5,242 nt of DNA from Candidatus Woesearchaeota archaeon (GTDB lineage Archaea > Nanobdellota > Nanobdellia > Nanobdellales > Nanobdellaceae). The position numbers were made by a program, and so were the translations under genes. This document shows positions 38 to 5,242 of the stretch, piece by piece. The DNA lies in contig CAYXSZ010000064.1 in the NCBI GenBank assembly GCA_964468425.1, forward strand, positions 1 to 5,242, in the 5' to 3' direction. The notes under the pieces were generated by a model. The model did no database searches, was not told the DNA's origin, and saw only the letters and a program-made list of their open reading frames with translations. Within the stretch, counting starts at the first letter, position 1. Each line of letters begins with the position of its first letter.

Positions 38-1684
38 ATGAGAGTTTTGTTCATTGACGTTGGAAACAAAACGTTTAGAGTCGAAGAAATAGAGCGCGAA
101 GACATTCTCGGACCGTTAGATCTCGGAGTCTATCTCCATAAGGATGTCTACAAGAGTTATGAAAAGGATGTATACGATCCTTCAAACGTTGTAATTGTTG
201 GAACAGGTCCTCTGAACTACCCAGGCGCTCAAAGGGGTGTTATAGTATTTAGAAGCCCCATTCACGGAGGAATTCACTCTTCAGTCATCGGAGACCTCGG
301 AGAGTACCTTAAAAGAGCCGGATACGATGCGATAGTCATCGAAGGAAAGGCTGAGACCGAGACTTTAATTTTCATTTACGACAGCGAGATTGATTTCTAT
401 GAAGAGAGTCTCCCAGAAAACATTTTCGAAAAGGAAAAGGAACTTTACGAGCGTTTTTCGAACTACAAGAACATAAGAGCGCTCCTTACCGGGAAAGCAG
501 CAGTAACTGACTATGCTTGCTTAGTTTCCTCAAAGCCTGGAAGAATTGGAGAAATTCCTTGTGTGGCTGGAAGAGGTGGAGCGGGATCTGTACTATACAA
601 GGCTCACAATGTAGTCGGACTTGTAGTTGGTGGGTCTAAAGATATTTCGATTCAAGAGTACGATGTAAAAAAAATTTTGGAATCCACCAAAAAATATAGA
701 GAAAGCGGAACTTTCTACGCTAATTATCCACACTTAAAAGACAAGATTGTTGCTCTTAACTGGCAGATTTCTTGTCAGAACAAGGAAAAGCGACTGGAGT
801 TCTACGAAAAATTTGTAGAGGGTGTTCTCTTGAAGGATTATACATTCTCTTCAGACACTTGTGGCGAGAGATGTCCTGTGGCGTGCAAGAAGATCGAGGA
901 CGGTGTAAAACTCGATTACGAACCAGTTAACGGTTTAGGACCCTTCATAGGAATTTTCGACAGGGAAAAAATCAGAGAGCTAGTTCACTTAGCAGATTCA
1001 TACGGATTTGACGCGATCTACTTGGGACACGTATTGGGAACGCTGATGGAAGCTCTTTCTAAAGGTTTACTCGACATAGATGTGGAAAAACCCGTTCTCG
1101 AGTTTGATAAATACGAAAAAGACTTTTCAGAAACGAATTATAAGGTTGCTAAGAAACTAATTGAAAAGCTCATTAGTGGAGAACTTCCTGGAAGTCGAAT
1201 TAGAAAACTTGCAGAACGATTGGGAATAAAGGATCTCGCGTTTTATGTTCCCATCGGCTCAGAATACGATATGACGCCAAACTTCTACTGGACATTAGGC
1301 TTAATTCTTCCGATTGCAATGTTCGGAAAGTATTATTCGGATTATCATACAACTGTAAAAGATCCGGAGGAGTACGCAAAGATTTGCGCAGAAAGAACCG
1401 TTATGGAATACCTCTTAGACAACTTAGGGATTTGTAGATTTCACAGAGCTTGGGTGGAGTCAGAGATCATAAGCGATACTCAAAAAGAAATAGCTAAAAA
1501 GAGAATAAAAGATTTATTAGAATACAGAAAGCTAGCCGGAGCCGAACCTATATTCTGGGAATCTAAGAGAGTTTTAGATGTAGTTACAAAATTATTTGAG
1601 GAGGATGGAAGCGAATGGGCTAACAAAGTTGAAGAGTACTGGAATAAATGGAAGGAAGCTTATAACTCTTTCTTTTTTGACTAA
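38..1684 (+). CDS. Aldehyde:ferredoxin oxidoreductase (AOR) family tungsto-/molybdopterin [4Fe-4S] oxidoreductase, short divergent member (548 aa); substrate unknown
   Basis: Complete ORF ATG38 to TAA1682-1684. Several blocks align from memory to P. furiosus AOR: 'VIVGTGPLNYPGAQRG..FRSPIHGG' (cf. 'IIAAGPLTGT..GGRY..TKSPLTG'), 'AGYDAIVIEGKAE' (cf. 'AGYDAIVVEGKAE'), 'VAGRGGAGSV' (cf. 'AAGRGGVGAV'), 'SYGFDAIY' (cf. 'ELGLDTIS') and 'DNLGICRF' (cf. 'DSAGLCLF', which holds the fourth cluster Cys). The Cys cluster 'CGERCPVAC' is at nt 860-886. Confidence 0.85.
   Translation: MRVLFIDVGNKTFRVEEIEREDILGPLDLGVYLHKDVYKSYEKDVYDPSNVVIVGTGPLNYPGAQRGVIVFRSPIHGGIHSSVIGDLGEYLKRAGYDAIVIEGKAETETLIFIYDSEIDFYEESLPENIFEKEKELYERFSNYKNIRALLTGKAAVTDYACLVSSKPGRIGEIPCVAGRGGAGSVLYKAHNVVGLVVGGSKDISIQEYDVKKILESTKKYRESGTFYANYPHLKDKIVALNWQISCQNKEKRLEFYEKFVEGVLLKDYTFSSDTCGERCPVACKKIEDGVKLDYEPVNGLGPFIGIFDREKIRELVHLADSYGFDAIYLGHVLGTLMEALSKGLLDIDVEKPVLEFDKYEKDFSETNYKVAKKLIEKLISGELPGSRIRKLAERLGIKDLAFYVPIGSEYDMTPNFYWTLGLILPIAMFGKYYSDYHTTVKDPEEYAKICAERTVMEYLLDNLGICRFHRAWVESEIISDTQKEIAKKRIKDLLEYRKLAGAEPIFWESKRVLDVVTKLFEEDGSEWANKVEEYWNKWKEAYNSFFFD
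1651..1666 (+). promoter_or_regulatory. Candidate BRE/TATA (GAAGGAAGC-TTATAA) for the tRNA-Leu gene, embedded in the 3' end of the AOR CDS
   Basis: TTATAA at 1660-1665 is preceded by a purine-rich stretch at 1651-1659. It is centred about 29 nt upstream of tRNA position 1 (1692), which predicts a TSS a few nt before the mature 5' end. Motif-only call. Confidence 0.3.
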
Positions 1685-2278: not shown

Positions 2279-3448
2279 GTGAAGGTGTTGGTAACGACAA
2301 ACCGCGGATTCGAAGACGCTTGCGCAAGCGAAATAAAAATGCTAACAGGAAAGGAAAGCGAGATAAGACCTTTTGGAGTCTTAGGTAGAGTAATGTTTGA
2401 AGTAAAAAACTTAGAAGAAGCTGCAGAGTTCACGTATCTCACAAGAACCGCAAATAGAGTTGTTCTTTTCTTAAAACACTTTAAAGCGCCTAGAACTAAA
2501 GAAGGACTAGAAAAAATATATGGAGAGCTTAAGGATATGGATTGGGAATTTATGAACGAGAACATAACGTTTGCGGTAAGATCTAAAAGGATGGGAGTCC
2601 ACGAATACAATTCAATGGATATTATGCGTGTAGCAGGGCAAGCCATCATAGATTCCATTCAAGAAAGAAAGAAGTATCGTCAAAAAGTAAATCTAGACGA
2701 ACCCGATGTAGTTATTCGAGTGGATGCTGTTGGAGAAGATTTTTTTGTTGGAATAGACTTAGTAGGCGAGAAGGGACTGCACAAAAGAGGTTACAAAGTT
2801 TACAACCATCCAGCATCCTTAAAACCCACGATTGCGCAGAGTTTAATAATCTTGTCTGAATGGTGTGAAAACAAAGTTTTGTTAGATCCAATGTGCGGGT
2901 CGGGAACAATACCAATCGAAGCTGGTTTATTTGCAAGAAACATACCAGGTTCCTTTTGGAGGAAAAAGGATTTAGCCCTAACTAAGCTAGAAATAGGAAT
3001 AGATTGGTTTGAGTTCTTCAGAAACATCGATGAAAAGTTCATTCGGGATTCGGATGCAAGAATTATAGCTTCCGATAAGCTAGTCAGACACGTAAAGGGA
3101 GCAGAGATCAACGCGCAAAGAGCTCTTGTCAAGGATCTTATACAATTTCGCAGGATAGATCTCGAGTGGCTCGATCTCAAGATCGGCGAAAAGAACGTTG
3201 ATTATATAATCACGAACCCTCCGTACGGAGTTAGAATGTCCTATAAGGAAGAACTACAAAAAATCTATAAGTACTTGTTTTATCAAGCGGAGTATATATT
3301 GAATGATCAAGGGAAGATTGTTTTGATCACTACTCAAAAGAAGCTAACGCTTAAGTATGCTGAAAAATACAAGTTCTCCTTGGTTCACGAGCGAAAAGTT
3401 TGGAACGGAAACTTAGAGGCATTCGTCTTTATATTTACCAAGGAATGA
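2279..3448 (+). CDS. trm14: THUMP-domain SAM-dependent RNA (guanine-N2) methyltransferase, Trm14/TrmN (COG0116)-like, 389 aa
   Basis: ORF from GTG2279 to TGA3446-3448. The N-terminus 'KVLVTTNRGFEDACASEI' is typical of the ferredoxin-like/THUMP module. SAM motif I is 'LDPMCGSGTIPIEAG'. The catalytic motif IV 'ITNPPYGVRM' (NPPY) marks exocyclic-amine methylation. Length and domain order match archaeal Trm14 (m2G6) and bacterial TrmN/RlmL rather than the shorter Trm11. The target nucleotide is inferred, not shown. Confidence 0.8.
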   Translation: MKVLVTTNRGFEDACASEIKMLTGKESEIRPFGVLGRVMFEVKNLEEAAEFTYLTRTANRVVLFLKHFKAPRTKEGLEKIYGELKDMDWEFMNENITFAVRSKRMGVHEYNSMDIMRVAGQAIIDSIQERKKYRQKVNLDEPDVVIRVDAVGEDFFVGIDLVGEKGLHKRGYKVYNHPASLKPTIAQSLIILSEWCENKVLLDPMCGSGTIPIEAGLFARNIPGSFWRKKDLALTKLEIGIDWFEFFRNIDEKFIRDSDARIIASDKLVRHVKGAEINAQRALVKDLIQFRRIDLEWLDLKIGEKNVDYIITNPPYGVRMSYKEELQKIYKYLFYQAEYILNDQGKIVLITTQKKLTLKYAEKYKFSLVHERKVWNGNLEAFVFIFTKE

Positions 3449-3463
3449 TTTTTATGATTTTTC
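3446..3463 (+). terminator. Tandem T5 tracts (TGATTTTTA TGATTTTTC): likely archaeal oligo-T terminator for the methyltransferase gene, possibly also the A/T-rich promoter core for the next gene
   Basis: The 8-mer TGATTTTT occurs at 3446-3453 and again at 3455-3462, starting on the stop codon. Archaeal RNA polymerase terminates at T runs of 5 or more. A TATA-like TTTATATT lies at 3428-3435, about 35-40 nt before ATG3470. Confidence 0.35.
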
Positions 3464-3469
3464 ATAACG

Positions 3470-3652
3470 ATGAAAATAATGGATATCCGCGAAGTTCCAA
3501 AAAGCACAACGACAAAGACTATGCTAGTGGTAGAAAAAGGAGTCAAGTTCGTTTGTCCTAACTGCGGTAAAGGAACAATAATTAGAACGAATAAAGAGAG
3601 AAAAATGGGTGTTAAGTGGGTGTGTCCATCTTGCGGATTCGAAGGACCGTAG
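3470..3652 (+). CDS. Small Zn-ribbon protein (60 aa) of the COG2888 type ('Zn-ribbon RNA-binding protein involved in translation')
   Basis: ORF ATG3470 to TAG3650-3652, with ATG3479 as an alternative start. It has two CPxCG knuckles, 'CPNCG' and 'CPSCGFEGP', and the C-terminal 'CPxCGFxGP' ending characteristic of this family. It sits directly upstream of aEF-1beta, the conserved neighbourhood for the family. Confidence 0.8.
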   Translation: MKIMDIREVPKSTTTKTMLVVEKGVKFVCPNCGKGTIIRTNKERKMGVKWVCPSCGFEGP

Positions 3653-3656
3653 GACG

Positions 3657-3932
3657 ATGGGAAAGGTAATCATTACCCTTAGAATTTATCCAGAAGAAGT
3701 GGATACAGATCTCGCAAGAATAGTGGAAGAAGCCAAGAAAATAATCTCCGAGTTCGAAGGAGAGTACTGGAAGCACGAAGAAGTGCCTATAGCTTTCGGT
3801 TTAAAGGCTCTAGACGTAAAGTTTACCTATCCAGACAAGGAGTTTGAAGAGGAAAAGTTCTTGGAAAAAATTAAGCAAATAGAAGGTGTAAGCGACGCCG
3901 AAGTAACGGGAGTCACTCTTTCATCTATTTAA
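3657..3932 (+). CDS. ef1b: Translation elongation factor aEF-1beta (91 aa)
   Basis: ATG3657 to TAA3930-3932. The size is typical at about 90 aa. The N-terminal strand is 'VIITLRIYPEEVDTDL', the core is 'EEVPIAFGLKAL', and the C-terminus is 'EGVSDAEVTGVT', matching the archaeal EF-1beta pattern (cf. Pyrococcus '..EREPIAFGLVALK....VESAEVETVSRI'). The 107-aa version in the track, starting at GTG3609, overlaps the Zn-ribbon gene and is not needed. Confidence 0.9.
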   Translation: MGKVIITLRIYPEEVDTDLARIVEEAKKIISEFEGEYWKHEEVPIAFGLKALDVKFTYPDKEFEEEKFLEKIKQIEGVSDAEVTGVTLSSI

Positions 3933-5242
3933 TGTCTTTTGAAATAAAGAGGTTCGAGGAACTCGACCTGAAAGGTTTAAAGAAGGAAATAGAAGAGGAA
4001 AGAAAGTTCGTAGAAAAAGTTCTCGAGGGAAAAATCGAGTGTGATAAAAAGGAATTCGTAAAAACAGCCCTGTTTGTTGTAGAATCTCCCAACAAGGCTA
4101 GAACCATCGCCAACTTTTTTGGAAAGCCCTCAGTTAGATCCTTCGGAAAGATACAAGCCTATGAAGTTTCAATTGGAAACTATCACTTAATAATCACTGC
4201 TACAAAAGGGCACTTGATTGATCTCTCTACAAAAGACATAGGTCTTTATGGTGTAGAAGTCAAAAATGGAAAGATTTTACCTCACTATAACTCAATCAAA
4301 AAGTGTTACGATTGCGGTTATCAGTTTACAGAATACGATTCTGAGGAGAAAAAATGTTTAGTGTGTGGAAGTGACAACATCGACGATGCGTGGGAAAGAA
4401 TCGAAGCCATCCAGCAACTAGCTCAAGAAGTTGACGAAGTAATCATTGGAACGGATCCCGATGCGGAAGGTGAATTTATAGCGTACACCGTTTATTTGTT
4501 AGTCAGACCCTTCACTCAAAATATTAAAAGAGCAGAGTTTCACGAGGTAACAAAAACAGCTATAATAAATGCTCTTAATAACCTTCGAGAAATTAACTTG
4601 AATAGAGTCAAGGCTCAAATGGTTAGGAGAATAGAGGATAGATGGTTAGGATTTAGCTTAACTGAAAAAGTAAGAAAAGCGTTTAAAAAAGATTGGCTGT
4701 CAGCGGGGAGAGTACAAACTCCCGTTCTTGGGTGGATTGTAAAAAGATACCTCGAGCATAAGAACTCTCTAAGCTATTTCATAGGAATCCGAGCCGGAAA
4801 GTTAAATTTAATCTTAGACCTAGATATTAAAGATAAGAAGAAACTAAACCAAGTTCTAGAGGTCTTGAAGAAAGCTAAAGTTAAGATAAAAAATAAGAAG
4901 TACGAAGAAGTGGAGTTAAATCCTCTACCCCCTTACATGACCTCAACTATGCTTCAAGACGCCACGAACTATCTCGGAATAGGAGTAGATCAAGTCATGC
5001 AAATTGCACAGGATTTATTCGAAGCAGGACTTTGTGTGGCTGGTGATACGTACATAACCCTAGCAGATGGTCAAATAAAAAGAATAAAAGACATTGTTGA
5101 AAAGAAAGAAAATACATCCCTATTAGGAACGAACAGCTTATCCATTAAAGAGAGTAAAATAGTAAAACATTGGAAAATAAAGTATTCTGGAAAAATTAGA
5201 AAAATAATCCTGGAGAATGGATATGAAATAAAAGTAACTCCA
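3932..5242 (+). CDS. rgy: Reverse gyrase, topoisomerase (Toprim/type IA) subunit encoded without the helicase module; 3'-partial (runs off the window) and interrupted by an intein from nt 5033
   Basis: I translated this by hand: ATG3932 overlaps the aEF-1beta stop (TAATG), and 437 codons stay open to the window end. It is absent from the ORF track because it has no stop in the window. Reverse-gyrase signature motifs are 'ALFVVESPNKARTIANFFGKPS' (Toprim Glu51, nt 4082-4084), the inserted Zn finger 'CYDCG..x12..CLVCG' (4304-4369), 'IIGTDPDAEGE' (4442-4474), 'SAGRVQTPVLGWIV' (from 4700), 'PLPPYMTSTMLQDA', and 'IAQDLFEAGL', which normally precedes I-T-Y-H-R-T-D with the catalytic Tyr. Confidence 0.9.
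   Translation, partial: MSFEIKRFEELDLKGLKKEIEEERKFVEKVLEGKIECDKKEFVKTALFVVESPNKARTIANFFGKPSVRSFGKIQAYEVSIGNYHLIITATKGHLIDLSTKDIGLYGVEVKNGKILPHYNSIKKCYDCGYQFTEYDSEEKKCLVCGSDNIDDAWERIEAIQQLAQEVDEVIIGTDPDAEGEFIAYTVYLLVRPFTQNIKRAEFHEVTKTAIINALNNLREINLNRVKAQMVRRIEDRWLGFSLTEKVRKAFKKDWLSAGRVQTPVLGWIVKRYLEHKNSLSYFIGIRAGKLNLILDLDIKDKKKLNQVLEVLKKAKVKIKNKKYEEVELNPLPPYMTSTMLQDATNYLGIGVDQVMQIAQDLFEAGLCVAGDTYITLADGQIKRIKDIVEKKENTSLLGTNSLSIKESKIVKHWKIKYSGKIRKIILENGYEIKVTP
5033..5242 (+). mobile_element. Intein, N-terminal splicing region (block A and following), truncated by the window end
   Basis: The extein motif 'AQDLFEAGL' is followed not by the catalytic-Tyr motif but by 'CVAGDTYITLADGQIKRIKDIVE', a close match to intein block A (C-[LV]-x-G-D-T-x-[VI]-x-L-x-D-G-x-x-x-x-I-x-[DE]-[LIV]). 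The window ends at '..ENGYEIKVTP', the usual lead-in to block B (T-x-x-H). The C-terminal splice junction and any homing-endonuclease domain are out of view. Confidence 0.75.

Follow-up and report, generated by a model that had tools for sequence, protein, structure and literature searches.

The 3′ end of the 5,242-nt stretch of DNA analysed here (the window; contig CAYXSZ010000064.1 of assembly GCA_964468425.1, labelled Candidatus Woesearchaeota archaeon) carries an open reading frame (ORF) that very probably encodes the topoisomerase subunit of a Nanoarchaeota-type two-subunit reverse gyrase (RG), inherited in its split form, made as an intein-bearing precursor and served by a separate helicase partner. 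This ORF, the topo half, lies at 3932-5242 on the forward strand, comprises 437 codons without a stop and is still open at the window's 3′ end; it is absent from the mechanical ORF list because it runs off that end. An earlier note on this DNA had recognized the missed frame, read it as an RG topoisomerase half encoded as its own gene and proposed that it might be a further, possibly independent, split. We found that the first part of this reading stands, given the 467-bit match to TIGR01054, a conserved start and intact upstream genes, but that the proposal of an independent origin does not, and that an intein at the active site had been overlooked.

Identity of the topoisomerase module

The topo half has the following features:

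3932-5032, forward strand: N-extein (residues 1-367), NEQ318-type topoisomerase subunit, matching TIGR01054, structure 1GKU and the homolog P0001
3932-4069, forward strand: N-terminal linker of 46 residues, aligning with A. fulgidus RG residues 471-515 and with residues ~612-655 of the unsplit RG L006
4070-4546, forward strand: Toprim domain, residues 47-205 (PF01751, E=1e-19), with catalytic Glu E51 (VESPNK) and the DPDxEGE cluster
4304-4366, forward strand: four-Cys zinc ribbon within Toprim (C125, C128, C142, C145), an RG-type feature
4592-5032, forward strand: first part of the type IA core, residues 221-367, ending LFEAGL (PF01131)
5033-5242, forward strand: N-terminal splicing region of an intein, the last 70 codons of the ORF, with Cys1 at residue 368 (PF14890, TIGR01445)

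The ORF matches the RG model TIGR01054 (rgy) at 466.9 bits over profile positions 560-918 of 1172, where the cutoff of 471.7 bits applies to the full-length protein, and competing NCBIfam models score lower (171 bits for topA_bact, 99 bits for topA_arch and 75 bits for topB). Its top match in the Protein Data Bank (PDB) is A. fulgidus RG (1GKU, residues 471-812, E=1e-83), followed by T. maritima RG (E=1e-78), with Topo I reaching only ~1e-25. The N-terminal linker corresponds to the inter-domain segment that directly follows the helicase module in unsplit RGs, and the Toprim strand ALFVVESPNKARTI begins at residue 46 of the ORF, bearing out the earlier placement of the start 44 residues before this strand. 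Within Toprim, the catalytic Glu E51 and the acidic residues D175, D177, E179 and E181 are invariant in our alignment A1, as are all four zinc-ribbon cysteines, which align with A. fulgidus CRDCGYQFTE...CPKCGS. PF01131 (Topoisom_bac) covers residues 221-368 (E=5e-32, profile positions 2-159 of 411), and the core segment stops immediately before the active-site motif GL(I/C)TYHRTD, which is present with its catalytic Tyr in all relatives. Together, the profile, PDB and Toprim/zinc-ribbon evidence identifies the ORF, at the level of sequence, as the RG topoisomerase module starting at the helicase-module boundary.

We considered whether the ORF could instead encode a stand-alone type IA Topo I or Topo III unrelated to RG function, since it has no helicase domain and since Toprim and Topoisom_bac are common to all type IA enzymes. 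The profile scores and PDB E-values above separate it from those families, its Toprim domain carries the RG-type zinc ribbon, its linker matches the RG inter-domain segment, and in the tree described below it clusters with RGs, away from the Topo I outgroups, so that we regard this alternative as extremely improbable.

Break point and ancestry of the split

Two features define the 5′ boundary of the topo half:

3657-3932, forward strand: aEF-1beta, 91 aa (PF00736, NF001670), upstream neighbour of the topo half, conserved in the lineage by synteny
3930-3934, forward strand: TAATG overlap of the aEF-1beta stop with the topo-half start, read from the sequence

As the earlier note had described, aEF-1beta lies directly upstream, and the ATG at 3932-3934 shares a base with its TAA at 3930-3932. 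Relatives L086-L088 and L105 show the two genes abutting in the same way. Because of the TAATG overlap, aEF-1beta and the topo half are probably co-transcribed and translationally coupled. The first in-frame stop 5′ of the ATG is 20 codons away, with no alternative start between. No helicase-like sequence was found in the three forward frames of 3300-3935, which hold only the end of Trm14, a zinc-ribbon protein (60 aa, HVO_2753-type) and aEF-1beta; these genes fill the upstream frames, and therefore no helicase module is present in the window, in line with the earlier note's point that none can be fused to the ORF there.

A frameshift or misjoin near 3930 could in principle hide a fused helicase-topoisomerase gene, given a fragmented metagenome assembly in which the contigs of this population break frequently. 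However, the aEF-1beta/topo junction is identical in five independent assemblies from four samples, the ~1.6 kb 5′ of the topo half is fully taken up by intact Trm14, zinc-ribbon and aEF-1beta genes with strong family matches, and relatives have the same arrangement. These observations make an artefact scarcely credible. The locus itself is present in four vent metagenome samples, with a few single-nucleotide polymorphisms (SNPs) and variation on a synonymous scale.

We next compared the topo half with its closest database relatives, which are proteins of 630-664 aa with only Toprim and Topoisom_bac domains, 54-75% identical to it; those with names are annotated as RG of Ca. Nanopusillus sp., Ca. 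Nanoclepta minutus, Nanobdella aerobiophila, Nanopusillaceae and Nanoarchaeales. The N-extein is 74.7% identical to P0001, from a metagenome-assembled genome (MAG) of Ca. Nanopusillus sp., whose gene order (Trm14, zinc-ribbon, aEF-1beta, topo half) is that of the window, with stop and start again abutting. The initial Met of the topo half is invariant across the 16 sequences in A1, marking a conserved break point. In a neighbor-joining tree (321 columns, 100 bootstraps; a distance method with limited outgroup sampling), the window ORF falls within the nanoarchaeal topo-half clade in 100 of 100 bootstraps and groups with P0001-P0003 in 99 of 100, and unsplit RGs and Topo I fall outside the clade. 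The phylogeny that the earlier note had proposed against RGs and Topo I thus places the ORF with RGs and inside the nanoarchaeal group. A scan of genome contigs with the nanoarchaeal alignment, which depends on generic Toprim motifs, yielded mostly bacterial Topo I among the matches listed, with no Nanoarchaeota or N. equitans among them.

To find helicase halves, we used the helicase module of the unsplit 1233-aa RG L006 as query, followed by a profile of the first matches. This returned ~26 complete helicase-only proteins of 569-596 aa, some of them named Nanoclepta, Nanopusillaceae or Nanoarchaeales. The helicase halves end (...KLKLYFS and ...LKWIEY) at L006 residue ~610 and the window ORF aligns from residue ~612; the halves abut, without gap or overlap. 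Stand-alone helicase halves therefore end exactly where the ORF begins, the outcome for which the earlier note had suggested looking.

These results bear directly on the proposal of a new split, arisen independently in a lineage unrelated to N. equitans. That proposal drew on the window's GC content, counted by hand at about 38-40% and computed here at 38.9%, compared to ~32% for N. equitans, and on an adjoining AOR-family gene, which is joined by a molybdopterin-oxidoreductase gene and is unusual for the gene-poor N. equitans; the existence of other topo-only RG genes with different N-termini (P0026 and P0057) shows that such an event is possible in principle. However, the start residue, the fully supported clade, the common synteny and the abutting helicase halves all place the window gene with the known nanoarchaeal split, which the literature records as the ancestral state of both the marine and the terrestrial Nanoarchaeota. 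In Table 1 of Podar et al. (2013, PMC3655853), RG is split at the "same site" in N. equitans (NEQ318-434) and in terrestrial Nst1 (Nst337-402), and these authors conclude that gene splits held in common arose before the group radiated. GC content spans 25-39% across the nanoarchaeal loci we fetched and is therefore not diagnostic. An independent origin is thus already largely refuted, and we consider it very improbable. The split predates the radiation of the group, and the window gene is another member of the known nanoarchaeal split.

The earlier note was right to separate the source from N. equitans. A GC content above that of N. equitans and the AOR-family gene point to another, less reduced lineage of nanoarchaea and not to a different split. 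Judged from sequence, the DNA comes from an uncultured nanoarchaeote of hydrothermal vents (~39% GC) whose relatives include MAGs labelled Ca. Nanopusillus sp. Like the window gene, the N. equitans (NEQ434 helicase and NEQ318 topo) and Nst1 enzymes are split between the helicase-like and type IA modules and have a separate topo gene, in the same clade, that opens with a short linker before Toprim; the window differs in its lineage, its vent metagenome source, its 39% GC and its nearest MAGs. Methanopyrus kandleri RgyA/RgyB is likewise a naturally two-subunit RG, but its break does not coincide with the helicase/topoisomerase domain boundary (Garnier et al., 2021, PMC8185306), whereas the window ORF starts at that boundary and contains the whole Toprim domain and the first part of the core. 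The window gene is thus not split in the Methanopyrus manner, with a break inside the topoisomerase part. These comparisons remove a false lead, since the window holds the ancestral nanoarchaeal split and brings no new information on the assembly history of RG. They also show that the split, its exact break point and its adjacency to aEF-1beta are common to marine and terrestrial Nanoarchaeota, among them a 39%-GC vent lineage carrying AOR and molybdopterin-oxidoreductase genes.

We then asked which helicase half might serve the window's topo half. In the nearest relative, the helicase half P0248 and the topo half P0001 lie on different contigs of one MAG (GCA_020697515.1) from one sample (ERZ27236680), and this organism therefore has both halves as separate genes. 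For the window we identified one leading candidate:

L102, 490-2241: P0249, complete helicase half of 583 aa (assembly ERZ940667, the same as L001 and L004)

P0249 has a GC content of 37.2% and a third-position GC (GC3) of 35%, compared to 37.7% and 37% for the window N-extein, and shows the highest codon-usage correlation with the N-extein of any candidate (r=0.90). It is 65% identical to P0248, its Walker A, DDVD and motif VI are intact, and its cluster includes JGI members. It is co-occurrence and composition, rather than linkage on one contig or in one bin, that make P0249 the best candidate partner. We rejected P0149, a helicase half that shares its sample with L005, on its GC of 31%, GC3 of 22% and only 46% identity to P0248; its composition and distance place it in a different co-occurring nanoarchaeote.

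The N-terminal zinc finger looks degenerate in P0249, P0248, P0160 and P0161 (CFNC...PCELD, with the fourth Cys replaced). In this subgroup Pfam zf_Rg scores under its cutoff (19.3 versus 25.5 bits), while P0139, P0145 and P0149 keep the finger. Beside the helicase half, a TmcA-like tRNA acetyltransferase is encoded by two genes (345 and 426 aa) in hot-spring contig L097 (7541-9912) and by a single 788-aa gene in L096 (10060-12426) and L100. Here, too, a nanoarchaeal gene split varies with lineage; compare the "P-loop ATPase-acetyltransferase" in Table 1 of Podar et al.

Among topo-only proteins elsewhere, we rejected as further splits the many 600-760-aa "reverse gyrase" matches from other phyla, most of which begin within the helicase domain and are fragments from the ends of contigs. 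Two apparently complete topo-only RG genes lie outside the nanoarchaeal clade, P0057 (634 aa, on a 270 kb contig), which starts right at the Toprim strand, and P0026 (661 aa, on a 105 kb contig), which starts ~20 residues upstream of the nanoarchaeal site; these may be additional independent splits. P0086 and P0089, 626-aa topo-only RG-like proteins on 35-40 kb contigs, start at the nanoarchaeal position and show W where G is otherwise invariant (TDPDTEWEK, SSSWWHV, GEEWTHEAIRPT), a pattern that suggests UGA=Gly recoding read as Trp, in which case this would be a split RG in a recoded lineage.

The active-site intein

The last 70 codons of the ORF match two intein models above their cutoffs, PF14890 (E=7e-10, 39.3 bits; cutoff 35.8) and TIGR01445 (E=8e-13, 49.3 bits; cutoff 24.5). 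At the N-terminal splice junction LFEAGL is followed by CVAGDTYITLADG, which constitutes block A with Cys1. Block B is cut by the window end at ...VTP, but contig L003, which has 1 mismatch to the window across 1311 nt of the ORF, adds 20 nt and extends the reading to ...VTPDHALLA. The insertion falls after Leu367. Relatives without the intein have GL-ITYHRTD at this point, which lies two residues ahead of the catalytic Tyr. The visible intein segment has a higher AT content than the extein, with a GC3 of 24% versus 37%, although it comprises only 70 codons.

The same junction, at the same site, is found in the Thermococcus RG P0017 and in P0269, P0272 and P0273, to whose inteins the visible N-terminal part is 44-48% identical (45% over 75 residues for P0017, E=3e-24). 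With the junction segment as query against 1.84 billion representatives, the top seven matches were long RGs aligning across the junction. Inteins in the three homologs we inspected, P0269, P0272 and P0273, are 313-456 aa long and end in HN immediately before CTYHR(T/S), with a recognizable LAGLIDADG endonuclease in two, and their +1 Cys nucleophile takes the place of the Ile of intein-free GLITYHRTD. The unsplit RGs P0017 (Thermococcus sp.), P0272 and P0273 share with the window an LFE-x-GL sequence before the Cys, Cys1 itself and the block B motif TPDH, at 44-47% identity over the visible 76 residues. The hosts differ, the window intein lying in the stand-alone topo subunit of a split enzyme.

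P0269 (ENA ERZ27262635; L105 8001-12149) offers a parallel in gene structure. This 1382-aa protein is a nanoarchaeal-type topo-only half with the same split-site start, lies directly 3′ of aEF-1beta and contains two inteins, one of which, 456 aa long with LAGLIDADG, is at the active-site position. Splicing would leave a protein of 669 aa, and the GC content is 30%. Its second intein (257 aa, Ser1, ending ...CHN before T) interrupts Toprim between TDPD and TEGE, where the window gene has none. Identity between P0269 and the window is only 55% over the N-extein and 48% over the N-terminal part of the intein, and none of the ~16 nearest intein-free relatives has the active-site intein; the element is therefore patchily distributed within the nanoarchaeal clade, as expected for a mobile element. 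RG is listed among intein hosts (Novikova et al., 2016, PMC4760082). In the literature we searched, we found no description of an intein in a nanoarchaeal RG and no mention of an intein together with a split RG. The window intein is unreported but unsurprising.

Working from homologs and N. equitans biochemistry, we propose how this gene would give rise to an active enzyme, including the C-terminal half of the intein, the C-extein, splicing competence and subunit assembly. The topo half would be translated as a precursor in which ...LFEAGL is followed by the intein and then by CTYHRTD..., as in the homologs, and protein splicing would remove the intein and restore the type IA active site ...GLCTYHRTD... 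The mature topo subunit, of ~640-670 aa, would bind non-covalently to a separate helicase-like subunit of ~583 aa, for which P0249 is the best candidate, and the ATP-driven conformational cycle of that subunit would direct strand passage toward positive supercoiling. ATP-dependent positive supercoiling by the two N. equitans halves together has been shown biochemically (Capp et al., 2010, as cited in PMC6878951 and PMC8185306).

Several observations weigh against this interpretation. The contigs L002-L005 and the window all end 714-1407 nt into the topo gene, so that the C-terminal blocks of the intein, the +1 Cys, the catalytic Tyr and the C-extein lie beyond every contig recovered, as would any homing-endonuclease domain. 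Contig L005 is without block B (TPDH), a loss that, if genuine, would hamper splicing. It diverges from the window at 5237, inside the intein (L005 9538-9633), and aligned to P0269 it is missing 8 residues that include block B (TPDHxLLx); it may represent an allele defective in splicing, a variant of the intein or an assembly error, and 3 of the 5 contigs end within ~100 nt of the divergence point. P0249 is a candidate with a close competitor, P0150, which shows a nearly equal codon-usage correlation (0.89). Finally, the identity of the break point with that of N. equitans is indirect, drawn by transitivity from Nanopusillaceae relatives and Podar et al.

Searches for the remainder of the gene did not extend it. 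The partial products of L002-L005 had no exact match in the protein collection searched, and a scan of metagenome contigs with the C-extein of P0001, relying on poorly conserved peptide patterns, returned only relatives of ≤49% identity and not the C-extein of the window organism.

The 3′ part of the gene being in no assembly, the L005 allele without block B and the AT-richness of the 70 intein codons would also fit a decaying copy, in which the intein is not splicing-competent or the gene is truncated and the population is losing its topo subunit. However, the N-extein has no stops or frameshifts and keeps all invariant catalytic residues, the window and L003 together show canonical intein blocks A and B, an intact candidate helicase partner persists, and the gene occurs in four samples with only synonymous-scale SNP variation. 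Strain heterogeneity is a simpler explanation of the contig breaks, and we judge decay to be unlikely.

More speculatively, and with a similarly small chance of being correct, the intein, whose Cys1 and predicted +1 Cys flank a site two residues from the catalytic Tyr, could act as a conditional switch (responding, for example, to redox state or temperature) that gates maturation of the topo subunit and RG assembly in an obligate symbiont, with intein variants, the block-B-deleted allele among them, perhaps segregating in the vent population. If true, this would place a layer of post-translational control on top of a trans-assembled enzyme. Apart from any such switch, some nanoarchaeal topo subunits bear an active-site intein known from the unsplit RGs of Thermococcales-like and other archaea, and maturation of the enzyme can therefore need both protein splicing and trans-assembly. 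That assembly breaks coincide with the intein is also a practical caution for those who annotate this hyperthermophily marker gene in MAGs.

Neighbouring genes

Elsewhere in the window, a minus-strand ORF at 1777-2229 (150 aa) has no family match but is conserved and was called in all same-locus contigs. Searches against Rfam gave no match at the gathering threshold. A tRNA-Leu(CAG) of 86 nt lies at 1691-1776 on the forward strand, immediately 3′ of the AOR gene.

The AOR-family gene itself (38-1684, forward strand) encodes a 548-aa protein with AFOR_N and a partial AFOR_C, whose best NCBIfam match, archaeal GAPOR, is far under its cutoff (265 versus 1300 bits). In longer contigs it adjoins an upstream gene for a 639-aa molybdopterin oxidoreductase (L001 253-2172; L005 2488-4407), and the pair represents metabolic content unexpected for a nanoarchaeote. 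The AOR gene is called at only 373 aa in L005, indicating that it differs between strains.

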